Assembly: GCA_039189765.1 (NCBI GenBank)
Contig: JBCCYL010000002.1
Span: 32,001 to 96,000 of the forward strand
Length of the DNA stretch: 64,000 bases
From: Cyanobacteria bacterium P01_F01_bin.150
Lineage (GTDB): Bacteria; Cyanobacteriota; Cyanobacteriia; CAKZMO01
Direction: 5' to 3'
The notes beneath the pieces were generated by a model. The model did no database searches. It saw only the letters and a list, made by a program, of their open reading frames with translations, and was not told the DNA's origin. Of this stretch, positions 1 through 15,396 are shown piece by piece. Made by a program: the position numbers and the translations under genes. Within the stretch, counting starts at the first letter, position 1. Each line of letters begins with the position of its first letter.

Positions 1-2
1 AA

Positions 3-335
3 ATGGCAGAATTAAGCTATCGGCAGATTGTCCAAAAACTGTTAGAGGAATATAGCAGCATTCGCTCTTTTAATGAAGAGGTTGAGGCGGAAGCTATCTT
101 TGATGAAAAACGCGATCGCTACCAAGTTGTCCATGTCGGTTGGTCCAATAAGCACCGCGTCTATGGCTGTATTCTGCATCTCGATATCAAAGACGGCAAG
201 ATATGGATTCAACACGATGGCACTGAAGGTGGCATCGCTAACGAGCTAGTAGAACAGGGCGTGCCCAAAACCGATATTGTGCTTGGGTTCCATTCTCCCT
301 TTAAGCGACAATTTACCGATTTTGCGGCGGGTTGA
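3..335 (+). CDS. xisI: XisI family protein (fdxN excision element-associated)
   Basis: 110 aa with typical XisI motifs (FDEKRDRYQVVHVGW, HLDIKDGKIWIQHDGTE, GVPKTDIVLGF). Confidence 0.9.
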   Translation: MAELSYRQIVQKLLEEYSSIRSFNEEVEAEAIFDEKRDRYQVVHVGWSNKHRVYGCILHLDIKDGKIWIQHDGTEGGIANELVEQGVPKTDIVLGFHSPFKRQFTDFAAG

Positions 336-369
336 TGTTGGCGATCGCAGAAGGCATTGCTAGGGGGCC

Positions 370-434
370 AGATCCCGGGGTTCTGCAAAAACGTATCGCC
401 AAACAACAAGGATGATATTAGAACCCCGGGATCT
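370..434. repeat. 65-bp palindromic element, copy 1 (15-bp inverted arms, 35-nt spacer)
   Basis: agatcccggggttct at 370-384 and agaaccccgggatct at 420-434 are exact reverse complements. Confidence 0.9.
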
Positions 435-452
435 CTGCGTAGCTGACCATTG

Positions 453-770
453 CTAGCCGATACGAACCTTCTTGGTTAACACGACCACTACTTCACCGGG
501 CTGTCCTGAGGGAACAGGATGGCTCCAGTCATTGGGTTCTGCATAGTTGAGGACGTACAGCAGCTTAATCGTGTTTTGGACTGCGGCGATGCTGCCAAAG
601 AGCATATGGCGCACGGGTTCGTAGTGGGGCGGCGACGATGACGACATCGTTGTACTAACGGCTACGGTATTTGCTGCATAATTCGCAATATAGCTTGAGG
701 TATAGTTTTCAGCGTAATATCCATCACAAACTGTGGGCGTAAATACGCCCGGTTCAAAGGGTTGAAACAT
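453..770 (-). CDS. Small cyanobacterial hypothetical protein
   Basis: 105-aa ORF; the C-terminal part (VRHMLFGS...LNYAEPNDWSHPVP...GEVVVVLTK) resembles a common small cyanobacterial family; GGAG upstream of the ATG. Confidence 0.6.
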   Translation of the reverse strand: MFQPFEPGVFTPTVCDGYYAENYTSSYIANYAANTVAVSTTMSSSSPPHYEPVRHMLFGSIAAVQNTIKLLYVLNYAEPNDWSHPVPSGQPGEVVVVLTKKVRIG

Positions 771-1195
771 GATTTCTGGTCTCCAGATATAACCATCAAT
801 GGATAGAGACCAGAACCCAAAATCACTCAGCCACTCCGCAACTTGTGGGACAAATCAGGGTAGCTGGGCGATAATCAACCCATACCTCCGAACTGCCTAC
901 GTCAGTTTTTGGGGTGTAGTCATCGGTGTGGTGTTCGTAGCACCCGCCGATGGCGCTAAGTCTCCTGAGTTCTGAGCCAGAGCGACGGCAAGGGGCTGAT
1001 GCGGTAAGTCACTTGGGTGTAAATTACCGATGCAGCGTTGTGCGATCGCCATAAAGACGAAAATAGGCTGATTCCTGTTCAGAGTCAAGCCTCAGAGGTG
1101 CCCGATAATCAACGCTATTTGGCAGAAATAGGCTGCTGAAGGCTGAAAAATCAGACAAAGGTAAGAGTTTTGTGGATTTTTGGGACAGTACGCCC

Positions 1196-1260
1196 AGATC
1201 CCAGGGTTCTACCCAACCTTCATTAAGATCGCCAAATTATTACCAAGAACCCTGGGATCT
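1196..1260. repeat. 65-bp palindromic element, copy 2
   Basis: agatcccagggttct 1196-1210 / agaaccctgggatct 1246-1260, perfect inverted repeat, 35-nt spacer. Confidence 0.9.
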
Positions 1261-1340
1261 CCCCAACGCCCTAACGCCCTAACGCCCCAACGCCCCAACC
1301 GTCCCTCTCCAAAATCTAAAATCTAAAATCCAAAATTCCA
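1261..1340. repeat. Short tandem repeats (8-mer cccYaacg and heptamer aaaatcY, STRR-like)
   Basis: ccccaacgccctaacgccctaacgccccaacgccccaac followed by aaaatctaaaatctaaaatcc. Confidence 0.8.
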
Positions 1341-1343
1341 AGG

Positions 1344-1520
1344 GGTTCAAGAAACTCTTCGGCGCACCTACCAAGCTCCCTGAACCGTTTGTATTTTTGG
1401 ATTACGTGCGTTTCCAAACTGCCGAGGCAAGCGGAACGCATTGCAATCACTGGAACAGGTCTGGACTCTTCAGGGCACTCCCAATGAATTCCCATCCATC
1501 AGCTCTGGCATAGAAGAGTA
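1344..1520 (-). ncRNA. Putative structured DGR spacer RNA 3' of TR
   Basis: Minus-strand stems: ACUCUUC/GAAGAGU (1519-1513 with 1471-1465) and a 13-bp stem with three G:U pairs at 1386-1344; lies directly downstream of TR. Confidence 0.55.
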
Positions 1521-1642
1521 CTGGGGGAGGAACAAACGAGGCGAAAGCCGATGTTGTTGTTCCTGTTGTCTGCGTCGTTCCTGTTACGGTTCGCCGAGCG
1601 GCAGTTCCTGGGATTGTTGATCCACGAACCACCCCGCAGCAG
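1521..1642 (-). other. DGR template repeat (TR)
   Basis: 122-bp match to 3579-3700 with 11 mismatches, all at coding-strand adenines; rich in AAC/AAT codons (reads LLRGGSWINNPRNCRSANRNRNDADNRNNNIGFRLVCSSP). Confidence 0.97.
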
Positions 1643-1705
1643 CAGAGGTGCCTGCCCCAGATTTAGTCTAAAGGATCTGGTTGACTGACCAAACATTGCC
1701 CCCAT

Positions 1706-1811
1706 GCAGTTGAAACTGCGGCTACACAAACAAAACCCGCCTACGCAGGTTAGGAGTAGTCCATTAGTCCCTGAAGAGGGACTTTGTCTGTATAGCCGCA
1801 AATTTATTTGC
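1706..1811. repeat. Inverted pair of REP-like double-hairpin repeats between RT and TR
   Basis: 1706-1751 (reverse) and 1766-1811 (forward) both read hairpin + ttgtYtgtRtagcc + GC-closed hairpin. Confidence 0.65.
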
Positions 1812-1820
1812 CAGGGCGAA

Positions 1821-2897
1821 TTAAGCCACCCCAGACCGACGGCTACGACGAAAGACCAGGGTGGCAAAAATATCTTGGCGTAGGTGCCAGCTATCGGCAT
1901 GTTTAAGGTGGGCACCCCAGCTCTGGATCGATTGAGTTAGGGATTTGACGCTAATCCGGCGTTTTTGATAGCGGCGCTGCAATCGCTTTAGGCGTCGTCG
2001 GGCGCGACGTAGGTTTTCGTTGCGAACGCGGATTCGGTCGGGCAGAATGCGAAAGCCGACAAAGTTTGCGCCGATTGCGGTGGCAAAAAGCTGACTTTTA
2101 ATTGGGTGAATAGTAAGACGAAGCGTAGCCAAATAGTCTTCAATGGCCTGTCGGGCTTGGACAAGTTCGGCTTTGTCGTGGCTAAAAAGGGCAAAATCAT
2201 CGACATAGCGAAGATAGGCGGAAATCTTAAGCTGCTCTTGGACAAAGTGATCGAAGCCGCTGAGGTAGATATTGGCAAAGCACTGGCTGGTAAGGTTGCC
2301 GATAGGAAGACCGCGTCGCCGTTCCAAGGGCGTAAGCAGGGTATCACCTGGGAAATGGCGAATAACGGGGATTTGCTCGTTGCTGCCGTCAATAATTAGG
2401 TCAATCAGCCAGAGAGTGTCGGGGCACTTAATTTTGCGCCGCAGAAGGGTCTTGAGAATTTCGTGGTCGATGCTGGGGAAATATTTGGTGATATCGCACT
2501 GGAGTACGTAGGGATAGGAGCGGGCACAGTGGGTAAAGCGCTGGAGGGCACGATGGGTCCCAAAGCCCCAGCGGTTTGCGTAGGAGTGGTGGATAAAGCT
2601 GCGTTCAAAGATGGGCATAATCACGTTGCACAGGGCATGGTGAACCACTCGATCGCGATAGGGTGCAGCGGAAATTATGCGGGGTTTGGGTTCTTTGATT
2701 TCAAAGGTATGATACTTTCCAGGGCGGTAGGTTTTAGTTTTAAGCTGATGCTGAAGGGTGATTAAATTTTGCTCTAAATTATAGTTAAAATCTAGAACAT
2801 TATCCCTAAATCGTTTGCCTTTTTGAGCATTACGGGCAGATACAAGTAGGTTTTCAAAATCAATAACTTTAGGCCAAAGATTACCGTAACGTTTCAT
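1821..2897 (-). CDS. DGR reverse transcriptase
   Basis: 358 aa; [31 protein letters not shown] (DGR-type SQ motif), catalytic RYVDDF; next to avd and TR. Confidence 0.97.
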
Positions 2898-2960
2898 CTA
2901 ATTAATTTATTTTCAGTTCCAAATTTTTAATTTTTAATTCTAAATTTTTAATTTTTAATT

Positions 2961-3329
2961 CTACACTAAGCTTCCTTGATTTACCCGAGGACTCCGCTTA
3001 CGCTGTTGCTTAATCCAGCCACCAAGATCCTTGCCGATAGTGTTGATTAATTCTCCAGCATGCTGATAACGATCTATTTTGATTAACTCAAAATCTAAAA
3101 GCAGGCGGGTTTGATGCCGAATCACGTCTAGCTTTGAGTTTAGAGCTTCAAGCCGTTCCAGTTTTTGGGTCGCATATCGGGCATAAATCAGCTCTTCTAA
3201 AAGATCGTAGAGATTAGAGGCCATCCGCTCTCCTAACATAAATTTATGCTGTTTGGGAAGACGATTAAGAATGGGAACGTACCATTTAATCAGGTCGTAG
3301 GTTTTCTGGATAATGGGCAAGTCTTGCAT
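2961..3329 (-). CDS. avd: DGR accessory variability determinant (Avd, four-helix bundle)
   Basis: 122 aa, LPIIQKTYDLIKWYVPILNRLPKQHKF...IGKDLGGWIK; directly upstream of the RT. Confidence 0.93.
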   Translation of the reverse strand: MQDLPIIQKTYDLIKWYVPILNRLPKQHKFMLGERMASNLYDLLEELIYARYATQKLERLEALNSKLDVIRHQTRLLLDFELIKIDRYQHAGELINTIGKDLGGWIKQQRKRSPRVNQGSLV

Positions 3330-3523
3330 TTATATGTGTACCGCCAAAAAAGATCACGTTTTATAAAGATTCAGTATTTCACAAAATAGAATACGGTACT
3401 ATTAAGTGGGAGACAGATATTTTTTAAGGAGTGTGCTGCACAATAGAGCTAATTTTAAAAAAGTAATTTGATTTCACTTTGTGAAAGCTTCGCTAACGCG
3501 CGTAGCGCGAAAAAAAGAGTAAA

Positions 3524-3573
3524 AATTAGCCCAAGAGCAAAGGGCAAAAAGGCAAAAGAATAGAGGGCTAATT
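3524..3573. promoter_or_regulatory. Inverted repeat directly downstream of VR1 (candidate DGR target-recognition hairpin)
   Basis: aattagccc 3524-3532 / gggctaatt 3565-3573, 9-bp arms with a 32-nt loop, overlapping the target stop codon. Confidence 0.45.
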
Positions 3574-5545
3574 AAGTCCTGGGGGAGGAACAAACGAGGC
3601 GAAAGCCGATGACGTCGTCCCAGTCGACTGCGTCGTTCCTGTTACGGTTCGCCGAGCGGCAGTACCAGGGATAGTTGACCCACGAACCACCCCGCAGCAG
3701 GCGACGGGTGGACTCTCCTGTTGTCCAAGCACTACCGTCTTTTGGAGCATTGTCGTAATTGTCATGCCAACGGTCTTCGCACCATTCCCAGACGTTGCCA
3801 TGCATATCGTAAAGGCCAAAGGCATTGGGCGGAAAGCTGCCGACTGGCATTGTTTTTTTCCGATATTCGCCTTCCGGGCCGTTGCCGTAGGTGTAGTTGG
3901 CGTCGTAATTGGCGATCGCCGTCGTCAACGTTGGCCCAAAATGAAATGGAGTCGTTGTTCCAGCCCGACAGGCATATTCCCATTCCGCTTCACTGGGTAG
4001 TCGATAGTTTTGGCCGAGGGGCGATAGTTTATTTAATCCTTCGAGGAAGGCGATCGCATCATCCCATGACACTTGTTCAACGGGGCGATCGCTCCCCTTG
4101 AATCCTGAAGGATTTTCACCCATTACGGCTTCATATACTGCCTGGGTCACCACAACCTTGCCCATATAAAAACTGGGCACCGTCACCCGATGAATCGGTT
4201 TTTCTGAATCATACTCATTAGACCCCATATCAAACGAACCACCCTTAATGTGCACCATATCAAAGGTGATGCCATTTCCTAAATCTTCGGTGAAATACTG
4301 AGCCTCCTTAGAAATTTTCTCAATAATTTTTCCCTTATCGTTTACCCGCACCGTTTCAAATGGAACCGTTAAGAGTGGTGATTGTGCGGTTGGTTGGGGC
4401 TTTGGTGAAGAAATCGGTGGTGGTGGCGTTGGAGCCTTTGCAACGGGAGAGAGTTGTGTCGGTGGTTGAGGCTTTGGGGAAGAAATGGTTGGTGCAGGCG
4501 TTGGAGCCTTTGCAACGGGAGAGAAAGGGGCGATCGCCTGTCCCTGGGGGAATCGGATTGGCTGAGGCGGCGTTGGTGCAGACGTGGCAGCAGGAGGATC
4601 AGAAGGCTTTTGCTGCGTCTCAATTGCCAAGCGCTGCTTTAGCGCCAGCGCTTTATCCTCTGCTGAACTTTCCGAACTCAATATGATTTGTTCCCACAGA
4701 TTTTTAGCCGACCCTAGATCTTGTAAAACATACTGGGCATGCAATGCATCCGCCTTAAGCTTATCAACATTGACCGTTGAAGGTGGAAGGGCAGGCTTTG
4801 GGGCTTTTTGGTCCTGAGATACAGGTAACAATAATTGCGTTGCCTTTTCCACTGGTTCTGCAATCACATAGGGGCGCTGGTTGCCAAACTTTTGGGTTAA
4901 GGTCGGTACAGTTTTCTGTAAATAGGCACTGAGTTTCCGTGCACTGCATTGGCTCGGTACACAATCTCCTCGCAGTGCATCCAATAAAGCATAGGTAAAC
5001 GCTCCGTGCTGATGCTCCTCTAGCTCATAGGACTTTTGCCCAGGACTACAGGAAAACAGCGTAATAATTCCGGCTTGTCGCACTAATTCAACGGTTTGGC
5101 TACCAATATCCTTGCCGTAGTCTGATACAACATTTCGACAAGCATCCAATACCAATACCAGGTTGCCTGCCTTACACTCCCGTAATGCTCGGACCACCTC
5201 GTCAACGGCAATGGCCGAATGAATCAAATCTTCTGGATCAGCATTGGTGGGCAACAAAAAATCTCGCCCTTGCTGTCGTCCGCCATGACCGCTAAAAAAG
5301 AGCCAAAAGCTATCGTTTCGTCCCAAACGAACTTTAGAGGAAATTGAGCGAAGGCCTCGTCTTAAATTAACTAGCTCAGGGTGTTGATGCTGGGATTGAT
5401 CGGAGTAGCGCAAGACTTCTTCAAAACCAATGTCCTGAAGGTAATTTTGCATGGCGATCGCATCATTCTCAGCAAATTGTAGATCCCTCAGATCGTCAAG
5501 CTGATAATGATTAACGCCGATAGTAAGGGCAACGTTTCTAGCCAT
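3572..5545 (-). CDS. DGR target: caspase-like peptidase C14 + Pro-rich linker + FGE-sulfatase (CLec-fold) domain
   Basis: FFSGHGG and VLDACRN (His/Cys dyad); FGE motifs RLPSEAEWEYACRAGT and NAFGLYDMHGNVWEWC; C-terminal VR matches TR. Confidence 0.95.
   Translation of the reverse strand: MARNVALTIGVNHYQLDDLRDLQFAENDAIAMQNYLQDIGFEEVLRYSDQSQHQHPELVNLRRGLRSISSKVRLGRNDSFWLFFSGHGGRQQGRDFLLPTNADPEDLIHSAIAVDEVVRALRECKAGNLVLVLDACRNVVSDYGKDIGSQTVELVRQAGIITLFSCSPGQKSYELEEHQHGAFTYALLDALRGDCVPSQCSARKLSAYLQKTVPTLTQKFGNQRPYVIAEPVEKATQLLLPVSQDQKAPKPALPPSTVNVDKLKADALHAQYVLQDLGSAKNLWEQIILSSESSAEDKALALKQRLAIETQQKPSDPPAATSAPTPPQPIRFPQGQAIAPFSPVAKAPTPAPTISSPKPQPPTQLSPVAKAPTPPPPISSPKPQPTAQSPLLTVPFETVRVNDKGKIIEKISKEAQYFTEDLGNGITFDMVHIKGGSFDMGSNEYDSEKPIHRVTVPSFYMGKVVVTQAVYEAVMGENPSGFKGSDRPVEQVSWDDAIAFLEGLNKLSPLGQNYRLPSEAEWEYACRAGTTTPFHFGPTLTTAIANYDANYTYGNGPEGEYRKKTMPVGSFPPNAFGLYDMHGNVWEWCEDRWHDNYDNAPKDGSAWTTGESTRRLLRGGSWVNYPWYCRSANRNRNDAVDWDDVIGFRLVCSSPRT
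3579..3700 (-). other. DGR variable region VR1
   Basis: Identical to TR at all 93 non-A positions; 11 of 29 TR adenines substituted. Confidence 0.97.
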
Positions 5546-5580
5546 ATCGATTTAATTCAACAGTCTCTCAATTTCCCTCT

Positions 5581-5722
5581 TCCCTAGTGCCCAGACTCCC
5601 TAGTGCCCAGACTCCCTGGTGCCCAGACTCTGGCTGGGTGCATCAAAGGGAGACTCTGGCTCCCCAGCCTCACCTGAGCCAGAGTCTCAGGTGAGGGTTC
5701 CCAGCCGGAGTCTGGGAACCAG
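5581..5722. repeat. REP-like palindromic repeat cluster (cccagactctggctggg family)
   Basis: cct(a/g)gtgcccagact three times, then gagccagagtctc and ggttcccagccggagtctgggaacc; related copy near 9690-9740. Confidence 0.7.
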
Positions 5723-5731
5723 GAGAGGGGC

Positions 5732-6136
5732 TTAGGGTTGACGTTCTGGCTTGCTTTCTGGCTTGCCAAACTTAAGGGTAATCGCGCCAGTGGCCCCCGC
5801 TTGGGTCCCGCCAATTCCCATTAGGCTTACCTTTCCCTCCGCACTAATCTGTACAGATAATTCAACCTCCTTCAGTTCCATTCCGGCTAAATCTCCCGCA
5901 TCCTTTTTGGCCTGCCCCAAGGCATTGCCCATGCTTTTCATCAGCCGGGTCAGCTCCCGCTGAATCGTCTGAGCCGACACCTGCACCGGACCAATGCCCT
6001 TACTAGCATCTGTCCCACCGGAACGAGGCGTATTGGATATTGCATCACTCAGAATCCCCTTACTTGGAGCCTCTGCACCCTCTCCACTTGGAGTATAAGT
6101 AATTAACGAAATCGTCTCATCTGACAGGTCTGCCAT
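5732..6136 (-). CDS. Pepco/Trypco-like peptidase-co-occurring small protein
   Basis: 134 aa with a helix followed by ELKEVELSVQISAEGKVSLMGIGG..AGATGAITLKF; directly upstream of a caspase gene; AGGAG upstream. Confidence 0.7.
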   Translation of the reverse strand: MADLSDETISLITYTPSGEGAEAPSKGILSDAISNTPRSGGTDASKGIGPVQVSAQTIQRELTRLMKSMGNALGQAKKDAGDLAGMELKEVELSVQISAEGKVSLMGIGGTQAGATGAITLKFGKPESKPERQP

Positions 6137-6156
6137 GGGGGGTCTCCTTATTACTA

Positions 6157-6296
6157 CAAAAACGTGTGTCTATTTTGTCACAGGAGTTTAGCACAGCCTA
6201 AATTATTCACAAAAGTCTTCCACCCATGCAAAGATCCCGGGGTTCTAATATCATCGTCGGGATAACCCAACACGTTTCGACAGAACCCCGGGATCT
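6157..6296. repeat. Direct repeat A (upstream region of the Pepco-like gene), including 65-bp element copy 3 at 6232-6296
   Basis: caaaaacgtgtgtctattttg...cctaaattattcacaaaa.tcttccaccca.gcaaagat matches 8117-8206. Confidence 0.9.
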
Positions 6297-6373
6297 GGCA
6301 CTGACCTTACTCCTAGAATCTAGAGGGATTCTAAAAATTCCTCAATCCAAAATCTAAAATCTAGAATCTAAAA

Positions 6374-8086
6374 TCAAATAGTTCTGGGGGAAGAACAGAC
6401 AAGGCGAAAGCCGAGGGCATAGTACCTGAGACCTGCATCGAGCCTGTGGCGGTTCGCTGAGCGGCAGAATCTGGGAATTTCCAACCACGCTCCCCCTCGC
6501 ATCCCGCGCAGGGTTGTATCTCCTGTTGTCCAGCTACTACCGTCACTTGGCGCATTGTCATAATTGTCATGCCAACGGTCTTCGCACCATTCCCAGACGT
6601 TGCCGTGCATATCGTAAAGGCCAAAGGCATTGGGCGGAAAACTGCCGACTGGTGTAGTTTTGTTTTGGTCTTTTCCTTTTGGCGCGTTGCCATAGGTGCC
6701 GCTACCGTCGTGGTTGGCGATCGCAGACGTTAATGTCGCCCCAAAATGAAACGGAGTCGTCGTTCCAGCTCGACAAGCATATTCCCATTCGGCTTCGCTG
6801 GGCAGTCGATAGTTTTGGCCAATAAGAGAATAGTCCTTGTTAAGGGCTTTGCAGAAGGCGATCGCATCATTCCATGCCACTTGTTTGACGGGGCGATTCT
6901 CATCTTGAGAGGCTTCGCCAACGCTTCCTTGAAAATTTGAGGGATTTTTACCCATTACGGCCTCATATACCGCCTGCGTCACCGTCACCATTCCCATAAA
7001 AAACGACGGCACACTTACCAAATGCTGTGGACCTTCATCGTTTCCGCGTTGCGCTTCATCAGGCGGTGAACCCATCGTAAAATCGCCACCTGGAATTTGC
7101 ACCATTGTAAACGTCACTCCATTGCTCAGGTTCTCCGTAAACCCATCCACTGTGACTGGATAGCGATTAGTAATATCGCCCCGGTCATTCGTTGGTCCGG
7201 CACTGGGCGATCGCTCCAGCAGTTGTAGCCACTCCGCCATTGACTGGGGACGATACTCCGGCTGAATCGCCATTCCCTTCATAATTGCCGCATTAACCCG
7301 GTCACTAATCGCCACATTCTTTTCCTGGGGCGGTACTAAATCATCGGGACGGGACTCCGCTAAGCTCACCCGTCGAGACAAGGATAGGGGCGGCACCTCG
7401 CCTGTTACCAAGGAATACAGCGTTGCGGCTAGGGCATAGACATCCGTAAATGCCCCTCGCTTGGCATGGGGCTGATACTGTTCCACCGGAGCATAACCAT
7501 CGGTCAAAAAGGGCGTATGTCTGCGGGTTAGGCTGGGGGTAAACTCACGGGCAATGCCAAAATCAATCAGCACCGCCTTGTCCGTCTCCTGCCGTACCAT
7601 AATATTGTTGGGCTTGATATCCCGATGCAGCAGCCCCTGACCATGCACGACCGATAGCGCTTGGCCCACTTGCTGGATATATCGTAGGGCATTAGCTTCA
7701 GTCAGCCTGCCCTTTGTACTAACCATCTCCGCTAAATCGACGCCATCGATGCACTCCATCACCATACAGGTCAGCCGCAGATATTTAGACAGAGTATTAC
7801 CTGGGTTGGGGTGGCACACCTTTTCTGTAAAAAAGCAGTGGACCTTAACAATATGAGGATGCTGACAGCCCCGAATCCTCAGGGCCTCGTTCATAAAATC
7901 ATCCTGAAAACTATCAAAGTCCGAGCGGATTTGGACCTCATCATTCAGGGTTTTAATCACCACCTCACCATAGTCCTGACTGGTGGCCAAATAGGTAATA
8001 CCAAAGCCCCCAACGCCCAGGACTTTTTTAATTCGATAGTTGCCCTCTTGTAGCCGTTGTCCTGGGGTCCATGCCATTCTAATCAA
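6374..8086 (-). CDS. Ser/Thr protein kinase + FGE-sulfatase (CLec-fold) domain; DGR target-like paralog
   Basis: GVGGFG, VVIK, HRDIKPNN, DFG, APVEQ kinase motifs; FGE domain similar to 3572-5545; VR-like C-terminus. Confidence 0.93.
   Translation of the reverse strand: MIRMAWTPGQRLQEGNYRIKKVLGVGGFGITYLATSQDYGEVVIKTLNDEVQIRSDFDSFQDDFMNEALRIRGCQHPHIVKVHCFFTEKVCHPNPGNTLSKYLRLTCMVMECIDGVDLAEMVSTKGRLTEANALRYIQQVGQALSVVHGQGLLHRDIKPNNIMVRQETDKAVLIDFGIAREFTPSLTRRHTPFLTDGYAPVEQYQPHAKRGAFTDVYALAATLYSLVTGEVPPLSLSRRVSLAESRPDDLVPPQEKNVAISDRVNAAIMKGMAIQPEYRPQSMAEWLQLLERSPSAGPTNDRGDITNRYPVTVDGFTENLSNGVTFTMVQIPGGDFTMGSPPDEAQRGNDEGPQHLVSVPSFFMGMVTVTQAVYEAVMGKNPSNFQGSVGEASQDENRPVKQVAWNDAIAFCKALNKDYSLIGQNYRLPSEAEWEYACRAGTTTPFHFGATLTSAIANHDGSGTYGNAPKGKDQNKTTPVGSFPPNAFGLYDMHGNVWEWCEDRWHDNYDNAPSDGSSWTTGDTTLRGMRGGAWLEIPRFCRSANRHRLDAGLRYYALGFRLVCSSPRTI
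6384..6503 (-). other. VR-like region VR2, diverged from the local TR
   Basis: Ungapped alignment to TR 1521-1640 gives about 16 mismatches at TR adenines and about 16 at non-adenines. Confidence 0.75.
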
Positions 8087-8116
8087 CTATCCAGCAATGA
8101 TGAGTTAGAAACGTAT

Positions 8117-8286
8117 CAAAAACGTGTGTCTATTTTGCCACAGGGTTTTAACACCGCCTAAATTATTCACAAAAATCTTCCACCCAAGCAAAGATTCCAG
8201 GGTTCTCTCGAAATGTCTCAAAGATCCCGGGGTTCTAATATTATCGTTGGGATGTCCCACAACGTTTCTACAGAACCCTGGGATCT
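8117..8286. repeat. Direct repeat B (upstream region of the kinase gene), including 65-bp element copy 4 at 8222-8286 and an extra half arm at 8192-8206
   Basis: Matches 6157-6296 with a 30-bp insertion. Confidence 0.9.
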
Positions 8287-8540
8287 CGCACCGACCAGCC
8301 ACTTTTGCAAAACCCCGGAACAAGCATCATCAAAAGTTAGATTACAGAGAGAAAGCATGGCAGTCAGAACAAGAAGTTATCTCAGCAATTGCTCTTGCGT
8401 TGGTTATCAAGGCTGTAATATGGGTCTCTGCGATAAATTCGCATAGATCAGCGCGTTAGACATCAGCTTGTCAAACAACAGGCATTATTGGCTCAAATCA
8501 ACTTTCAATCAACAGGCAAACATAAGGAGAGAGACGTTCA

Positions 8541-9665
8541 ATGGCTGCGGTAAAGAAGTCAGAAAATGTACCAAAAACGATGCAAGAGAAATACGACGCC
8601 ATTGTGGCGATTACCAATGAGTTCTCGAAAAAGCATCTAAACGAGGAATACGCTCAGCTTATTCGATTTGCCACCGCAGCCCTATGTCGAAAACGCCCAT
8701 CTCCCCTCGAAAAAGGCCGAGATAAAACCTGGGCCTGTGGCATCACCCATGCTGTAGGAATGACCAACTTTTTGTTTGATTCCTCCCAAACTCCCCATAT
8801 CAGGGCCAAAGAGCTGTACAAAGCCTTTGGCGTCGGAGAGAGCACGGGCCAGTCTAAATCAAAACAGGTGCGCGATACGTTAAAGATGCGCCAGATGGAT
8901 CACAACTGGTGCTTACCCAGCAGGATGGGAGATAGTCCATCAATCTGGATGATTTCGGTCAACGGCTATATTATGGATGCTCGCTCTGCCCCCAGGGAAA
9001 TCCAAGAAGTCGCCCTAGCACAAGGGCTGATTCCTTATCTCCCAGGCAAAGACGGTAAACCATTGGAGGAAGAATCAAAACTAGAACCAGAAGCATCTAC
9101 TACAGAAAAGTCAGGTGCAAAGTCATCTAAGCAATCTTCCAAGCAGTCATCTAAGCAATCTTCTAAGAAATCCTCCAAGCAATCTTCTAAATCAACCTCT
9201 AAACAGTCTGCCGATACTCTTTACGTTTTAGAAGTTGGCATTATTTCTGGGCCTGTCACTGAAGCGTTTATTAAAAAGAACCCGGAAATCAGCCGCGTTA
9301 TCGAAATTAAGGGCAGCAACACATTAAAAGATTTGCATCGAGCTATCTTCAGCGCCTTCGACCGAGAAGAGGAGCATATGTATGAATTTCAAATCGGTGG
9401 ACGAGGGCCAAATGATCCCAATGCACGACGGTATGGCATCAAGCCCCCATTTGATGATGAGGTGCCCGCAGGGTACGTCTCTAAAACCACAATGGACTCA
9501 TTGCAATTATCAGAAGATGAGGCTTTTGGGTATTGGTTTGATTTTGGCGATGATTGGTGGCATCAGATTAATGTTTTAACGATTCAGGATCAAGTACCCA
9601 AAGGAAAATATCCCAAAGTAACTAAGCGGGTAGGGGACAGTCCTCCCCAATATCCAGACCTTTAG
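8541..9665 (+). CDS. DUF6398-like N-terminal domain fused to a pRiA4b ORF3-like domain, with an SSKQ repeat linker
   Basis: N-terminal LCRKRPSPL...WACGI...NFLFD; C-terminal TLKDLHRAIFSAFDREEEHMYEF...YWFDFGDDWWHQI; AAGGAG upstream. Confidence 0.7.
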   Translation: MAAVKKSENVPKTMQEKYDAIVAITNEFSKKHLNEEYAQLIRFATAALCRKRPSPLEKGRDKTWACGITHAVGMTNFLFDSSQTPHIRAKELYKAFGVGESTGQSKSKQVRDTLKMRQMDHNWCLPSRMGDSPSIWMISVNGYIMDARSAPREIQEVALAQGLIPYLPGKDGKPLEEESKLEPEASTTEKSGAKSSKQSSKQSSKQSSKKSSKQSSKSTSKQSADTLYVLEVGIISGPVTEAFIKKNPEISRVIEIKGSNTLKDLHRAIFSAFDREEEHMYEFQIGGRGPNDPNARRYGIKPPFDDEVPAGYVSKTTMDSLQLSEDEAFGYWFDFGDDWWHQINVLTIQDQVPKGKYPKVTKRVGDSPPQYPDL

Positions 9666-9689
9666 GGCGGACGTATACAGAGACTGTCC

Positions 9690-9765
9690 TCTCGTTCCCA
9701 GACTCTGGCTGGGAATGCCCTCCTGAGACTCTGGCTCAGTTACGTAGGGTGCGTGACAACGCACC
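9690..9765. repeat. REP-like palindromes
   Basis: ctcgttcccagactctggctgggaatg, ctgagactctggctcag and GTAG-headed gtagggtgcgtgacaacgcacc (related copy at 44843). Confidence 0.65.
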
Positions 9766-9874
9766 TTCGCGTGCTGATATATACTCTCGTTCCTCTCTTT
9801 CCCAGGACGGAGGGTTGATGATGTCGGAAAGTAGCCTCGCGTAGGGTGCATTGCCTATACGACTTCGCGACTTT

Positions 9875-12268
9875 TCAGACATCTGCGCTATCGTCCAAAT
9901 CGGATTCGTCATTATCTTCTAAACGAGTTTCTTCGTTATCGTTCAAATCGGGTTCTTCATTATCTTCTAAACGAGTTTCTTCATTATCTTCTAAACGAGT
10001 TTCTTCGCTATCGTCTAAATCGGGTTCTTCGCTGTTTTCCAAATTAGGCTCCTGGCTGTTGTCCTGATCTGGTTCTTCGTCGTCTTCTAGGTCTAGGTCA
10101 ATTTTGCCCATTTCAATCAAAAGTTCCTTAACCCGCTCTCGAATCCGAAGATGGCGTTCCACATCTTCAAACGCGTAGCGATTGTAGCCATTGCGCTCAA
10201 TCAGTCGCTCCAAATTTCTGATTCGTTCAGGGGTATCAGGGTGGGTGGATAACCAGTCGAAACGACTGCTATTTCCCGACTCATCCAATAGAGTTTGCAT
10301 CAAATTGCGCAGTCCATCGGCAGCATAGGGTGAAGACGCCAAAAGACGAGTGCCCAATCGGTCCGCTTGCCTCTCCATATCTCGGCTATAGCGAAGTACG
10401 GTGAGATTGGTCACCAATCCGCCATAGGGAACCGCCTGGAGCACATTTGCAGTCAGATTTCCCCGCGTCACCTGCTGAAAGCCGTGGGACAAAATCGCAT
10501 GGGCCAACTCATGGGCAATCAGTCCCGCCAGCTCCGCCCCCGTGTCCGTGCGGGTAATTGCACCCGCATTGATAAAGATTTTGCCACCAGGCAGGGCAAA
10601 AGCATTAAGTTCATCCTCCGCCACGACGTAGAATTCGTACTCAAACTCGGTTCGTCCCCCTAGTTCAGCCAGATCTTGGCCAATGTCGTTGACGTAGTCC
10701 AGCACCACTTCATCTTCAATCATATCCAGCTCATCGCGGGCATTACTGGCGATTCGTTCCCCGACTGCGGACTCGCCCCGAATCATCAAGACGGTTGTTT
10801 CCAACGCAGATAAGGGACCAAACCAGCTGCCTGTAAAGGCAAATCCCGCAGCTCCAGCGATCGCGTTCCCAATCGCAGTACGGGTTAACCGCCGCCGCAT
10901 CTTTCTACGGAATCGATCCTGATATTCATCTGCCTGGACTTGAAAAGCCTCAGCGTCAGGATGGTCCGGCTCCAGCAATGCAAACTGACGGGAGGCGATC
11001 GCCGCCTGTAGCCATTGCTCATCTGCCACCAGTGCGTCCACCCGTGTCGTTGCCAATTCAGGATTATCCGGATATAGAGCAGTAGCTTGTTCCAACACTT
11101 CCAGTGCTTCGTCAATTTCGTCGGCATTCACCAACACCTGAGCATAGGCCATATGCCCAGGAATAAACTCCGGCTGCTGTTCTCGCAGTAACGCCAAAGG
11201 AATGCGAGTTCGGGTATCGAGACCGGCTTCTAGTCCAGCTTGATATTCCCGCCAATAAACTGCTCCGGCGGGGGAAAGCTGCTCTGGGTCAGAAAACCCT
11301 TCCTGTCGCTCAAACGTCCCCTCTTCATGGAATGGGTCTTTGGCCTGGCGGTAGAGTTCTTCTGCCTCTGCAAATTTTCCTTCGAGGAACAGGCGATCGC
11401 CCTCAATCAATAGTCGCTGTCGCTCCAATTCTTCAGCAGTGAGTTCTTCAGCTTCTTCGTCATCCTCTGTAGTCGTCGTATCTTCTGTGGTCGTATCTTC
11501 TGTAGCCGCATCATTAGACTGGCCCTCGAGCCCAGTAGTCTCTGCGCGTTCACCTTCGAGTTCCTCTTCAGAACCTTGATTGGTTTCAAGCTCTGAATCG
11601 TTAGTCTGCTCTCCGCTAATCTGCTCTTCACCACTATTTTGGGGGGCAGTTGTTTCTTCTAATGTTTGGGTTTTAGCATCTATATCATCAGCGCTGCTCG
11701 CTTCATCTTCTTCAGTAAGGAGGTCTATATTTATATCTGCATCTGCATCTGCATCTGTTTCGGCGTTATCCGTACGGTCTGCTGCCGTAGTGTCAGTACC
11801 TGAAGGGGCAAGATCTGTGGATTCATTTTCAGGTGAATTACTACCCACTGCATCAGACTCTGGTAGGTCAGAGTCTGCTAGGTCAGGATCTGCCTGATGA
11901 TTGTCTATTGGTGATGTGGGGTCTGCCGATTCGGTTGTTTCTTGACTGTCTGCATCTGGCGACCTTTCTGGAAATACCCCTCCATCGGGGATTGTTTGAG
12001 GCGTGACATCTTGAGGCGTGACAGGTGTTACCGTAGGCACAACCTGCCCCATAAGCTCTTCTACAGTTGTCTGTAAGGATAGGTCCTCAGCAGGAAAAGA
12101 GGTAATAGGAAAGGTCTCGACAGTATTTTGAGGCGTGACAGGCTCTTTGGCCAACTTCAAAGATTCAGACGGAAGAGCAAGCGTTTCCGCTGCCATAAAC
12201 AGGGCAAGTCCCCCATAAAAAACACCGCTGCCGACTACTGTCATCAAGTGAAGTACGATTCTGTTCAT
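9875..12268 (-). CDS. M48 family zinc metallopeptidase with TPR region and acidic low-complexity termini
   Basis: NAFALPGG, HELAH, YSRDMERQAD, LSTHP motifs; signal-like N-terminus; 24-bp C-terminal repeats. Confidence 0.88.
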   Translation of the reverse strand: MNRIVLHLMTVVGSGVFYGGLALFMAAETLALPSESLKLAKEPVTPQNTVETFPITSFPAEDLSLQTTVEELMGQVVPTVTPVTPQDVTPQTIPDGGVFPERSPDADSQETTESADPTSPIDNHQADPDLADSDLPESDAVGSNSPENESTDLAPSGTDTTAADRTDNAETDADADADINIDLLTEEDEASSADDIDAKTQTLEETTAPQNSGEEQISGEQTNDSELETNQGSEEELEGERAETTGLEGQSNDAATEDTTTEDTTTTEDDEEAEELTAEELERQRLLIEGDRLFLEGKFAEAEELYRQAKDPFHEEGTFERQEGFSDPEQLSPAGAVYWREYQAGLEAGLDTRTRIPLALLREQQPEFIPGHMAYAQVLVNADEIDEALEVLEQATALYPDNPELATTRVDALVADEQWLQAAIASRQFALLEPDHPDAEAFQVQADEYQDRFRRKMRRRLTRTAIGNAIAGAAGFAFTGSWFGPLSALETTVLMIRGESAVGERIASNARDELDMIEDEVVLDYVNDIGQDLAELGGRTEFEYEFYVVAEDELNAFALPGGKIFINAGAITRTDTGAELAGLIAHELAHAILSHGFQQVTRGNLTANVLQAVPYGGLVTNLTVLRYSRDMERQADRLGTRLLASSPYAADGLRNLMQTLLDESGNSSRFDWLSTHPDTPERIRNLERLIERNGYNRYAFEDVERHLRIRERVKELLIEMGKIDLDLEDDEEPDQDNSQEPNLENSEEPDLDDSEETRLEDNEETRLEDNEEPDLNDNEETRLEDNDESDLDDSADV

Positions 12269-12408
12269 GTTCCTTTCTCCAATTCTTGAAGATAAACGTT
12301 GGGCAGGTGGCAGGTGAATTATTTATTCTGTCTGTTTGATAATGCTAAACCTTCATGCATTATAGGTGTAAGCAGTTTATCCCCTGCACTGATTCATGAT
12401 GTGCACCC

Positions 12409-15222
12409 ATGACTTCATTTTCTGTTAGCCGTCTCTACTCTCGCCTTTTGCCCTTTTGCCTGTGGGCATTTCTCGGATTATGGCTTGCGCTTGGCGGTTC
12501 CTTTATTGCCGTTTATGCTACTGAATCAGCGGCTATCTCATCCGTCACTGTAGACTCAAATCAATCCCTGCTGCAAACTGGCATTACCGCTTTTCAATCG
12601 CAACGATACCGTGAGGCGATCGCCACCTGGGAAACCGCCCTGGCCCAATCCCCAGAAACTCCCTACAACCTTAACCGGGCACTCTTGCTAAGTAACCTTT
12701 CTCTGGCTCATCAACATTTAGGGGAACTGGCTAAAGCCGATCTTTATGTCACGGAAGCGTTGCGTTTATTTGCCCATACCTTTGAAGAAGAGGGGAGCGA
12801 TCGCCATAGTCTATTGGACTGGGAATACTATGCCAAAGCGCTTAACGCCCAGGGCTGGCTACAGTGGCGACAGGGGAATCTTGACCAAGCGCTTGAAGCA
12901 TGGCAGCAAAGTACTGTCGCCTACGATAACGCCGCTTATCAGCCCGGAGTCATCGGCAGCTTGCTCAACCAGGCCAAGGTGCTGCAAACCCTGGGGTTAA
13001 GCCGAGAGACCGAAGAGACGCTGCTTAAAACCCAGACCCTATTAGATGCACAATCGGACCCACAGCTAAAATCCCTGGGGCTGCGGTCCCTTGGCATCGC
13101 CTATCGCCAACTCGGAAAATTGGAGCAATCGATTACTGCCTTAACGGACGGACTACAGCATTTGGAAGTTCAGCTCCAACCGACAAATCTTACCGCGACC
13201 CAAGCGTCTCTCTTCCTTGAACTGGGCAATACTGAACGCGCCCGCTGGACCCTAACTTCAGCTATTAATCCCACCGTTGCCCCTCAACACCGAGATGATG
13301 CCTTGAACTGCTATCACCAAGCTGCATCCATAGCACCGTCCACCCTAGCTCAGCTCCAGGCGGATGCTAACGAATTAAGTTTGTACATCGATGTACTGCG
13401 CCAAGAGGATAGGGGGATAGAACTCAATATCGGCAGTGAGGCTGTGGGCACTTGTCCTCTGTCTTCAGATATCAAAGGAGCGGCATCCTTAGGTTGGATA
13501 AGTGGGCAATGGCAACATATTCAGGCGAGCCTGGCTCAACTTCCGCCGAGCCGAGCGGCAATCGAGCTTCAGCTTAATGTTGTAAATAGCCTTACAAAAT
13601 TGAGGGGTACCCTTTCTGAGTCAGAATTACTGGAACCCACATGGGCAGAAATGGGGCAGGCGTTGGCGATCGCCGTTGACCAAGCGACCCAACTCGATGA
13701 CGGTCGAACGGCATCATACGCCATGGGGCAGCTTGCCCATATTTACGAACGCAATGGCCAATGGGCAAATGCTCAATCGTTAACAAAAGAAGCGATTCGC
13801 CTAATTGAAGCGAAAGATATTCAAGCAGAGGATATTTTATATCGTTGGGAATGGCAATTGGGTCGGATTTTAGCCAAGCAGGGTAAACGGGAAAGGGCGA
13901 TCGCGGCCTATGACTCCGCCTACAAAACCTTAAAAACTATTCGAGGCAACCTGATTAGCATTAATGCTGATATTCAGTTTTCTTTCCGAGATAACGTTGA
14001 GCCGATTTATCGAGAATTTGCCGACTTATTGCTGCAAGCTGACTCAGGTTATCCTGACATCTATCAAGCCAATCTAAAACGGGCGACAGAGGTTATTGAT
14101 GATCTACAGCTTGCCGAGCTAGAAAACTTTCTGGGCTGTAACCTATCGTCGCGGCTACAGCTGAGTGAGAGAACCGTTGACCCAACTGCAGCCATTATCT
14201 ACCCAATTATCTTGTCTGATCGGATTGAGGTTATTCTCAAGTTACCCAATACGAGCAAGCTGTATCAATATACTCAGTTTGTCCCCGCATCGGAGGTGGA
14301 TGACACCCTAAAACAGCTACTTTTTGAACTGGGGCGGCCCTATCGTTCGCCGGAGGGCAAGGCACTGGGGCAACAGGTCTATGATTGGGTGATAAAACCC
14401 CTAAAACGTGATTTAAAAACTGCCCATATTAAAACGTTAGTGTTTGCGTTAGATGGGTCACTGCGTTCGATTCCCATGGCTGCGCTCTACAACGAAGAAA
14501 CAGTCGGAAATGAAACGACACGGACCTATCTGATTGAAGAATACGCCCTGGCAATAACCCCTGGCCTTAACCTTATTGAACCCCAACCCCTAAAGCAAAT
14601 TAGTCTGGATACCCTTGCATTTGGGCTGTCACAATTAAGAAAAGACTTTCCAATTCACGAGGGATTTTTATCGCTTCCGTATGTTGAAAATGAACTAGAT
14701 GAGATTCAAAACTATGTTTCTATAGAATCATTTCTAAATCAAGCCTTTACCGTTTCAACTCTGGAGGAACAAACCCAGGCGTCATCCTTTCCGATTCTCC
14801 ATTTGGCAACCCACGGCCAGTTTAGCTCAGACCCATCGGAAACCTTTATTCTTACTTGGGATAAACGGGTTGGAGTAAACCAGCTCAGCAATATTCTGCG
14901 GCAGCGCGATCAACGAACGCTAAAGCCAATCGAATTATTGATATTAAGCGCCTGTCAGACTGCCACAGGTGACAATCGGGCAGCCTTGGGTTTAGCAGGG
15001 GTAGCCGTTCAATCAGGGGCACGCAGCACTATTGCAACCCTTTGGACGGTGGATGATATTTCAACGGCAGATGTCATGAGTGCTCTCTATAAAGAGCTAT
15101 CTAAAACCGACGTTAATCTGACAAAGGCAGAAGCGCTGCAAAGAGCGCAAGTACAGCTTTTACAACAAAATGTTCCGCCCCAATATTGGGCACCTTATAT
15201 ATTAATTGGCAACTGGCTCTAA
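12409..15222 (+). CDS. TPR + CHAT (caspase/HetF-like) domain protein
   Basis: TPR-like repeats; LHLATHGQF, LILSACQTA, TLWTVDD, YWAPYILIGNWL. Confidence 0.92.
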   Translation: MTSFSVSRLYSRLLPFCLWAFLGLWLALGGSFIAVYATESAAISSVTVDSNQSLLQTGITAFQSQRYREAIATWETALAQSPETPYNLNRALLLSNLSLAHQHLGELAKADLYVTEALRLFAHTFEEEGSDRHSLLDWEYYAKALNAQGWLQWRQGNLDQALEAWQQSTVAYDNAAYQPGVIGSLLNQAKVLQTLGLSRETEETLLKTQTLLDAQSDPQLKSLGLRSLGIAYRQLGKLEQSITALTDGLQHLEVQLQPTNLTATQASLFLELGNTERARWTLTSAINPTVAPQHRDDALNCYHQAASIAPSTLAQLQADANELSLYIDVLRQEDRGIELNIGSEAVGTCPLSSDIKGAASLGWISGQWQHIQASLAQLPPSRAAIELQLNVVNSLTKLRGTLSESELLEPTWAEMGQALAIAVDQATQLDDGRTASYAMGQLAHIYERNGQWANAQSLTKEAIRLIEAKDIQAEDILYRWEWQLGRILAKQGKRERAIAAYDSAYKTLKTIRGNLISINADIQFSFRDNVEPIYREFADLLLQADSGYPDIYQANLKRATEVIDDLQLAELENFLGCNLSSRLQLSERTVDPTAAIIYPIILSDRIEVILKLPNTSKLYQYTQFVPASEVDDTLKQLLFELGRPYRSPEGKALGQQVYDWVIKPLKRDLKTAHIKTLVFALDGSLRSIPMAALYNEETVGNETTRTYLIEEYALAITPGLNLIEPQPLKQISLDTLAFGLSQLRKDFPIHEGFLSLPYVENELDEIQNYVSIESFLNQAFTVSTLEEQTQASSFPILHLATHGQFSSDPSETFILTWDKRVGVNQLSNILRQRDQRTLKPIELLILSACQTATGDNRAALGLAGVAVQSGARSTIATLWTVDDISTADVMSALYKELSKTDVNLTKAEALQRAQVQLLQQNVPPQYWAPYILIGNWL

Positions 15223-15396
15223 CAGGCTCGATTGTATGGCCAATTTTATGGCCAATTTTAGGTGTCCAGAGGATTTTTGTAACATAACCCTAATTTTGGG
15301 AGTAGAGCCTAAATGGGAGTGATATGGTTCCTTTAAAGCCATCACAAGCTTGTGCATGGCTCGGTGCTGAAACCCAAGAAATAAGGCTGTTTTACA

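Follow-up and report, generated by a model that had tools for sequence, protein, structure and literature searches.

A complete DGR with a Pepco-linked caspase-CLec target in a cyanobacterial genome

The function of the chromosomal targets of DGRs has been called 'elusive', and a role as sensors of invaders has been proposed (Dore 2024, PMC10907252). In the window, that is, the whole 64,000-nucleotide stretch of cyanobacterial DNA analysed here, a DGR lies next to a gene for a caspase-like protease fused to a CLec domain, and the question that the locus raises is what such a hypervariable protein could serve. Coordinates are those of the window, and the DGR elements and the caspase-CLec, kinase-CLec and Pepco genes are on the minus strand.

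Organization and mutagenic signature of the DGR

The locus is a complete DGR with the signature of mutagenic homing. All of the components named in the preliminary description (avd, a DGR-type reverse transcriptase, TR, VR and IMH/IMH*) were found; the locus also has a spacer RNA and, past the VR, a hairpin. The cassette is chromosomal and has the order VR-avd-RT-TR-Sp; the avd-RT-TR arrangement differs from that of BPP-1, which is avd-TR-RT. The RT gene (1821-2897) is an intact ORF of 358 amino acids with an RVT_1 domain, and the GNLTSQ and YVDD motifs reported previously were located at residues 200 and 231. Its best PDB match is 8ub7 (E 5e-50), which we take to be the BPP-1 RT, while the group II GsI-IIC RT gave E 3e-19. 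An assignment to the group II intron or retron RTs was rejected on this better match to 8ub7 and on scores of 141 for group II (cut-off 300) and 57 for retron St85 (cut-off 235). The RT may belong to clade 5E, the monophyletic cyanobacterial group of DGRs. Close relatives of the RT adjoin avd and TR/VR pairs, and the named ones, at 67-74% identity, are mostly cyanobacterial, with one Thiomargarita record. The HIP1 octamer occurs 11,400 times, with 123 expected. The Avd accessory protein (2961-3329, 122 amino acids) matches PF22296 with 79 bits and scores 136.3 bits against the NF033474 cut-off of 80. A small ORF at 453-770 was considered as a DGR component and rejected; it follows both DGRs of the genome but is present in about 60 copies genome-wide.

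The TR (1521-1642) is 122 nt long and includes 29 adenines, 28 of them at codon positions 1-2. The VR (3579-3700) is located at the 3' end of the caspase-CLec gene and has 17 variable codons. Ungapped alignment of the two on the minus strand reproduced the 11 mismatches described before, found at 11 of the 29 TR adenines and at none of the 93 other sites (hypergeometric P = 2.5e-8 for the restriction to adenines). A>T substitutions account for six of them and A>G for five; the first codon position is hit nine times and the second twice, altering 10 codons within residues 623-645, and the translations agree with the 10 changed residues of the preliminary description. About 4e15 protein variants are possible at the VR. 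The TR/VR identity stops at CCCCCAG, which is followed by T in the TR and by G in the VR, and the IMH* starts at about 1520. At 9 other DGR loci, TR and VR likewise cease to match at this single pyrimidine-to-G difference, which bears out the reading of this point as an IMH/IMH* boundary. A search for further targets of the TR covered 19 other CLec-like genome segments, besides the VR and the adjacent kinase gene, and all had at least 17 non-A mismatches.

The 0/93 non-A differences set an upper bound of about 3.2% (95%) on TR/VR divergence, and homing has therefore been recent on an evolutionary scale. To this extent the earlier statement of 'recent or ongoing activity' is partly supported; homing may or may not be going on at present. 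In the assembled contigs of one study (three runs), those identical to the window are interrupted at 1549 and 3607, as is explained by the 33-nt stretch common to TR and VR in which both positions lie, and no VR-site entry was present among the 40 listed of 335 variant rows.

Downstream of the TR, the structured spacer (Sp) part of the DGR RNA (1345-1520) is conserved across 6 DGRs with two-sided changes at 26 of 45 consensus pairs, and one of its stems has an extension of about 30 nt relative to its relatives. A search of Rfam with the region 900-8400, Sp included, gave 0 matches. A short GC hairpin (3497-3509), with a 5-bp stem and a 3-nt loop, follows a polypyrimidine tract about 70 nt past the VR and is a candidate homing cruciform. 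Hairpins of this kind follow 14 of 25 clean VRs, with 0.055 expected by shuffle; the folding z of the whole region is only -1.6 to -1.9. A 9-bp inverted repeat with a 33-nt loop immediately past the VR was dropped as lacking significance. The locus shares with the BPP-1 DGR the Avd, RT, TR, Sp, IMH/IMH*, post-VR hairpin and adenine-specific mutagenesis (Guo 2011, PMC3240598). It differs in that the hairpins of phage DGRs have a 7-10-bp stem and a GRNA loop and lie 4-34 bp away (PMC3240598), and in that the target is a cytoplasmic protease instead of a tail fibre. Taken alone, the DGR is a typical representative of a known class.

Two dispersed repeats, neither assigned to a strand, lie within the locus. 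One, MITE/REP-like and about 140 nt long (1676-1817), is situated between the RT stop and the TR leader, has 20-49 blastn matches per position genome-wide and is missing from a sister DGR on C48 in the same genome. The other, palindromic (5576-5725), has up to about 118 genome-wide matches per position. A scan for promoters and terminators gave no excess above shuffles.

The caspase-CLec target, its kinase neighbour and Pepco

The target gene (3572-5545) codes for 657 amino acids, with Peptidase_C14 at 3-229 joined by a long, flexible, Pro-rich linker to a CLec/FGE domain (FGE-sulfatase, 429-651). No transmembrane segment was found in the protein, the maximum 19-residue hydropathy being 0.87. 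Its protease residues are His87, Cys136, Asp28 and Asp134; Ala25 presumably occupies the metacaspase position of the pocket Cys discussed in PMC5756287. All 28 relatives in the alignment share the His87/Cys136 dyad. The 'active protease' of the preliminary description is to that degree plausible, but an intact dyad is no proof of protease activity (PMC5756287). The statement that cyanobacterial DGRs target multidomain CLec proteins agrees with published caspase-CLec fusions (Vallota-Eastman 2020, PMC7517822; Tery_2077, Pfreundt 2014, PMC4143802), which have the same C-terminal, VR-bearing CLec and an N-terminal orthocaspase or kinase. In those passages the DGR targets are, like those of this locus, mostly cytosolic and have degenerate paralogous VRs nearby. 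The present locus differs in its tightly linked Pepco gene and intact RT; no small partner gene is named in the passages of PMC7517822 and PMC4143802. Caspase alignments were confirmed in 0 of 68 candidate viral contigs, and a caspase domain was found in 0 of 161 metagenome contigs.

The Ser/Thr kinase-CLec gene (6374-8086) carries a drifted second VR (6384-6505), which mismatches the TR at 16 of the 29 adenines and at 18 of the 93 other sites. Fourteen of these 18 non-A mismatches are at third positions (Fisher P 6e-4), and the gene has a tandem repeat downstream instead of a post-VR hairpin. From its sequence, it is probably a former DGR target. The preliminary description ended at 5545; the Pepco gene, this drifted VR and the repeat of about 140 nt are absent from it.

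The Pepco gene (5732-6136) lies 187 nt upstream of the caspase-CLec gene on the same strand, with the palindromic repeat in between; the corresponding gap in the congener G001 is 13 nt. The product, of 134 amino acids, matches PF24393 with 78.6 bits (cut-off 27) and resembles Atlas Pepco clusters at 0.93. It matches Trypco1 weakly (E 0.006), as do 11 of 29 Pepco relatives at E<=0.1, and its C-terminal tail has 11 amino acids, the median being 6 in 52 relatives. A loop motif G-x-[RK]-small is present in 45 of 50 Pepcos, compared with 12.7 in shuffled sequences, for a motif defined post hoc from the alignment and among non-independent kin. The window Pepco has in its N-terminal loop S-K-G, at Lys26 and Lys46, and not G-x-K. 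A monomer model of modest confidence (pLDDT 68) consists of a helix and a beta-hairpin, and a PDB fold search with it returned nothing at E<=0.001; a predicted complex of the caspase dimer with Pepco scored 0.22, where the mark is 0.32, and was counted neither for nor against the pairing.

Linkage of Pepco to caspase genes extends beyond this locus. All three Pepco matches in the source genome, two of them near-identical copies, are directly upstream of a caspase gene. Pepco is directly upstream of 21 of 33 other cyanobacterial caspase-CLec genes and <=3 kb downstream of 7, while 4 have none in the region fetched; the background is about 240 Pepco matches in 401 genomes. Of the 30 best Pepco matches, 23 have a caspase gene <=1.5 kb away. 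A TR with <=1 non-A mismatch accompanies 8 of 30 scorable caspase-CLec genes, all 8 with Pepco, placed after the TR in two; two more genomes, L032 and L034, have the same cassette with 0 non-A mismatches. Diversification is optional, since 16 of 30 genomes with caspase-CLec genes gave no RT match and the G001 ortholog is without IMH and hairpin. The identity correlations (Mantel r) were 0.38 for Pepco and the caspase domain, 0.29 for Pepco and CLec, and 0.46 for caspase and CLec; this last value being the highest, much of the correlation reflects shared descent.

Similar units have been described as Pepco-protease and EACC1-caspase modules, in which, as here, the gene upstream of the fused protease and sensor codes for a small effector (Evans 2025 preprint, PMC12642450). 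There, FGE is among the Pepco-linked sensors and DGRs among the EACC1-linked ones, and DGR diversification of Pepco sensors is not stated in the passages of that text used here. The Pepco tested in PMC12642450 is linked to trypsin/Avs4 and is cut after Ile97, losing a C-terminal tail of about 2 kDa. The caspase-linked cyanobacterial Pepcos differ from this SsPepco type in their C14 partner, short tail and conserved basic motif in the N-terminal loop. C14 proteases other than caspases favour Arg/Lys in the P1 position (PMC5756287), and the caspase probably cuts Pepco after Lys/Arg of this loop and not in the C-terminal tail; the P1 residue is uncertain because one EACC1-associated caspase cuts at Asp. 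By analogy with a Streptomyces relative, which is a protease-activated pore, Pepco is predicted to be both the caspase substrate and a pore-forming effector, a mechanism that has to be regarded as transferred by homology because of the short tails and the weak Trypco1 matches.

A possible suicide-defence module and its alternatives

The arrangement suggests a compact defence unit for cell suicide whose sensor is hypervariable, and we consider it somewhat probable that the locus is a DGR-diversified two-gene module in which the variable CLec would act as the sensor of an invader and the caspase would kill the cell by cleaving Pepco. In the first step, whose footprint is present here and whose mechanism is established in BPP-1, RT and Avd copy the TR-Sp RNA, introducing errors at adenines, and the resulting cDNA replaces the VR at the IMH. 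The variable residues would form the ligand-binding face of the CLec domain, as suggested by alignment to TvpA. A multivalent foreign molecule, for example a phage protein, could then cluster the cytoplasmic protein and switch on the caspase domain, which would cleave Pepco, most likely past Lys/Arg of the N-terminal loop. The cut Pepco may permeabilise the membrane as its Streptomyces relative does, so that the infected cell would die and its kin be spared.

A regulatory function, in which the variable CLec adjusts the partners or substrates that an orthocaspase binds in homeostasis, differentiation or stress-induced death and Pepco serves as adaptor, inhibitor or non-lethal substrate, appears unlikely. 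It corresponds to the view of cyanobacterial DGR targets in PMC7517822, kinase-CLec paralogues are common (one is next door), Trypco domains were initially taken as adaptors (PMC10907252), and PADLOC matched no defence-specific model to Pepco or to the CLec part. However, about 4e15 variants would suit anticipatory recognition better than the tuning of fixed partners, and the small proteins that accompany the protease belong to, or resemble, two families shown to be lethal pores. The second of these is suggested at the sister DGR, whose caspase-CLec target scores 145.9 against the EACC1-associated NF047832 (cut-off 140) and where an ORF of 137 amino acids is similar (0.92) to Atlas clusters that bear EACC1, with the family on 25% of their members; Pfam gave no match to PF19953 (EACC1) in this ORF. 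Quite improbable, in our judgement, is a CLec that acts as a substrate-recruiting arm, binding an invader protein for destruction by the caspase, with Pepco cleavage secondary or absent. Sensor and protease are indeed parts of a single polypeptide, joined by a long flexible linker, FGS domains are regarded in PMC7159879 as interacting directly with invader molecules, and Pepco is missing near 4 of 33 such genes; but it is <=3 kb from 28 of 33, even if rearranged behind the TR, and has retained its basic-residue loop motif.

The DGR could also be intact in sequence yet silent at present or disabled not long ago, with the repeat between RT and TR as one conceivable cause, leaving the VR as a fixed relic. 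This bears on present activity alone and is compatible with the suicide-defence function. The repeat includes a terminator-like hairpin (1751-1734, coding strand), of a kind with 8 matches compared with 7.5 in shuffles; interrupted RTs with clean TR/VR pairs are seen in L079 and L102, and T. erythraeum has a dead RT yet clean VRs (PMC4143802). Against this, the cassette has retained an intact IMH, hairpin and Sp structure as well as intact ORFs for RT and Avd, and the TR of T. erythraeum possesses a start site of its own (PMC4143802), so that read-through from the RT is maybe dispensable. We regard silencing as rather unlikely.

Significance

Each part of the locus is already known, and caspase-CLec DGR targets in cyanobacteria have been published. 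The 'antigen sensors' of clade 5 in multicellular bacteria are likewise DGR-diversified CLec proteins proposed as sensors for programmed cell death, and Trypco1/2 and caspase domains are listed <=20 kb from RTs, cyanobacteria included (PMC10907252). Those systems signal via STAND or MoxR-vWA ATPases with Trypco as adaptor, whereas here sensor and protease are one chain and the cassette is without an ATPase gene; no MoxR, vWA or STAND NTPase domain was found in 10 scanned proteins of window positions 1-15222. The partner here is a PF24393 Pepco, and the word 'Pepco' is absent from the text and supplements of PMC10907252. More tentatively, and with some doubt, the locus may be a minimal ATPase-free circuit of innate immunity whose receptor is diversified somatically, in which a DGR-rewritten lectin fold and a caspase would open a Pepco pore by N-terminal Lys/Arg cleavage, a second activation mode, and two sister DGRs would feed Pepco and EACC1-like effectors.

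The invader-sensor idea can be tested directly in a unit of two genes whose read-out would be lethal. If the proposed function is true, the locus would be a bacterial counterpart of a diversified immune receptor that is coupled to cell death through a pore, Pepco biology would extend to caspase partners, and this would be the simplest system for showing anticipatory anti-phage specificity made by a cellular DGR.

Organization and identity of the retroelement

The window contains a genuine and intact DGR, of a class already known. All genes of the locus lie on the reverse strand and, in gene order, include a kinase-CLec gene (6374-8086), a Pepco gene (5732-6136), the caspase-CLec target gene (3572-5545), avd (2961-3329, above the NCBIfam cut-off), the RT gene (1821-2897) and the TR (1521-1642), followed by the spacer. 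The VR, located within the target gene at 3579-3700, differs from the TR at 11 positions, every one a TR adenine (11 of 29), while none of the 93 other positions is changed (P = 2.5e-8). The differences fall at codon positions 1 or 2 and alter 10 residues, and the 17 codons that can vary from this TR could generate about 4e15 proteins. The mismatch counts, motifs and boundary of the preliminary description were correct on recount, and its identification of a DGR is upheld by the joint presence of avd, a DGR-like RT, the adenine-only signature and an IMH/IMH*-type boundary.

Among solved structures the best match of the RT was 8ub7 (E 5e-50), which we take to be the BPP-1 RT, with the group II intron RT GsI-IIC far behind (3e-19); as a group II intron or retron RT the protein scored under both cut-offs. 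The single base that closes the TR/VR identity is the same at nine other loci, as IMH/IMH* would predict. Downstream of 14 of 25 clean VRs there is a polypyrimidine tract with a short GC hairpin, whose loop is of the GNA type on one strand; a mononucleotide shuffle predicts 0.055 such cases. Kinship among these VRs makes them non-independent, and an unrelated repeat accounts for two of the 14. The hairpin of the window (3497-3509) is unlike those of phages (PMC3240598) in both size and spacing. The spacer is kept across six DGRs, with two-sided changes at 26 of 45 pairs. HIP1 excess and the predominance of cyanobacteria among the named RT relatives point to a cyanobacterial host.

Homing history and other DGR loci

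Non-adenine divergence between TR and VR is at most about 3.2%, a bound derived from 0 of 93. A complete sister DGR with its own TR and an RT 78% identical to that of the window is found on contig C48 of the same genome (L001:6676-11457). Each of the two matches its own VR yet has 15-17 non-adenine differences to the VR of the other; homing therefore went on after they split, which, judged from these alignments, is past activity and no proof of present activity. Of the "recent or ongoing activity" proposed earlier, the recent part stands on an evolutionary scale, and the ongoing part does not follow from these data. A dispersed repeat of about 140 nt (1676-1817) separates the TR from the RT stop codon and is missing from the sister DGR, and other dispersed or short tandem repeats occur in or around the cassette at 5576-5725 (the gap between the Pepco and caspase genes), 1260-1340 and 6339-6376. 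The VR of the kinase-CLec gene has drifted from the TR (mismatches at 16 of 29 adenines and 18 of 93 other positions, the latter mostly third positions) and is followed immediately by a tandem repeat at the place expected for the hairpin. This gene looks like a retired DGR target, such as those described in T. erythraeum (PMC4143802).

The target of the sister DGR is a caspase-CLec above the EACC1-associated model cut-off, with 12 of 34 adenines changed. Upstream, with one ORF intervening, lies a 137-aa ORF that is directly upstream in genome G002 (L030, same layout); its likeness to EACC1 comes from Atlas only (0.92; family on 25% of cluster members), and EACC1 was not found in it by Pfam.

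On contig C134 (L002:5826-10110) an orphan TR-Sp is located 360 nt past a 1221-aa NACHT-GUN4-CLec gene (12 of 23 adenine and 2 non-adenine differences); avd and RT were not found there by tblastn, and the TR-Sp may be served in trans. RT-less target-TR cassettes also occur at L081, L084 and L094, and an orphan TR at L160. Four CLec-like segments in tandem (L005, G000:C2:156033-160055) and a second such array of five (G000:C120:27410-32803) have no matching TR in the genome (at least 29 non-adenine mismatches). Directly downstream of a two-target DGR, L026:727-2351 includes the gene of a probable trypsin-like protease together with a small gene; by eye the two resemble a Trypco-trypsin pair. 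The small ORF at 453-770 of the window follows both DGRs, probably by chance; it belongs to a family of about 60 copies in the genome with about 55 conserved C-terminal residues and no significant Pfam hit. A CHAT-TPR protease gene followed by that of a 3109-aa protein resembling, by eye, a filamentous-haemagglutinin-type exoprotein (12409-24726) is a pair common in cyanobacteria and apparently unrelated to the DGR.

Association of Pepco with caspase-CLec genes

Pepco (PF24393, 78.6 bits, cut-off 27) is encoded 187 nt upstream of the target, by a gene that the preliminary description overlooked. All three Pepco matches in the genome precede a caspase gene, two of them being near-identical copies. 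At L007:1408-3207 and L008:1408-2922 a near-identical short Pepco (101 aa, 2-residue tail) is followed by a caspase with a different C-terminal region. A non-exhaustive survey of 401 class-level genomes, using an alignment of three caspase-CLec proteins as query and scoring at most three candidates per genome, yielded 31 regions around matches covering both domains, the source genome and G053, the latter part of the query, being left out. Pepco is directly upstream in 21 of the 33 caspase-CLec genes found and within 3 kb downstream in 7 (for two of these the Pepco is common to an adjacent caspase gene, and a contig end truncates another); it is missing from the fetched region at 4, and one could not be told. 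The background is about 240 Pepco matches in 159 of the 401 genomes. In the reverse direction, a caspase lies within 1.5 kb of 23 of the 30 best Pepco matches.

TR scoring covered 30 of the 33 genes. A TR with no more than one non-adenine mismatch exists for eight, and none of these eight lacks Pepco: the gene is directly upstream in six cases and behind the TR in two. Avd and RT are adjacent in four (two RTs interrupted), another three have a TR nearby but no RT within the fetched region, and the remaining gene is a remote target. The full window cassette is also present in L032 (16 of 39 adenines changed) and L034 (19 of 27), with zero non-adenine changes in both. The order in L079 and L102 is caspase-CLec, avd, interrupted RT, TR and Pepco, the effector gene being displaced behind the TR yet kept. 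Diversification of the Pepco/caspase-CLec pair is optional, because the RT search gave no match in 16 of 30 carrier genomes and because in the congener G001 the pair is present and the IMH and hairpin were not found on a contig that ends 366 nt downstream.

A possible sensor-caspase-Pepco pathway

The target caspase-CLec has no transmembrane segment, and in alignment its VR corresponds to the C-terminal segment of TvpA, presumably the TvpA variable region. All 28 relatives compared keep His87, Cys136 and Asp134, and at least 90% keep Asp28; we take Asp28 and Asp134 to be an acidic pocket. A Streptomyces Pepco and a Ktedonobacter EACC1 were shown to be latent pores that partner proteases open once a fused sensor detects a phage protein (PMC12642450). 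From these pores, together with the features of the target, we infer by homology a pathway in which the variable CLec would bind an invader molecule, this binding would switch the caspase on, and the activated caspase would cut Pepco, leading to cell death. An intact dyad is no proof of protease activity (PMC5756287), the window-type Pepco is weakly homologous to the Trypco-type protein that was tested, and the identity correlations (Pepco-caspase r = 0.38, Pepco-CLec 0.29, caspase-CLec 0.46) are in large part a product of shared descent.

The Pepco cut site probably differs here from that of the characterised Streptomyces protein, SsPepco. The C-terminal tails have a median of 6 residues, and G-x-[RK]-small occurs in the loop between the N-terminal strand and the long helix in 45 of the 50 Pepcos scored (out of 52) against 12.7 expected, for a motif picked after the alignment was viewed and a loop placed from a structure model. 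In the window Pepco, Lys26 and Lys46 each stand in an S-K-G motif, and G001 retains both. Such basic residues fit what PMC5756287 describes for non-caspase C14 proteases, a preference for Arg/Lys at P1; among EACC1 caspases, one cleaves at Asp (PMC12642450).

Cyanobacterial caspase-CLec DGR targets (PMC7517822, PMC4143802), the DGR sensor hypothesis with Trypco neighbours (PMC10907252, PMC8195603, PMC7159879), and FGE-fused Pepco proteases and DGR-linked EACC1 modules (PMC12642450) have been published. In the literature searched, only PMC12642450 names both "diversity-generating retroelement" and "Pepco", and the accessible part of its text does not join them; its Figure 5A and supplements, or Nicastro 2023, may already show such loci. 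What is added here is that a DGR-diversified caspase-CLec and a Pepco effector are tightly and recurrently linked, in a cassette with no ATPase, together with a predicted mode of Pepco cleavage that would be an alternative to that of the SsPepco system.
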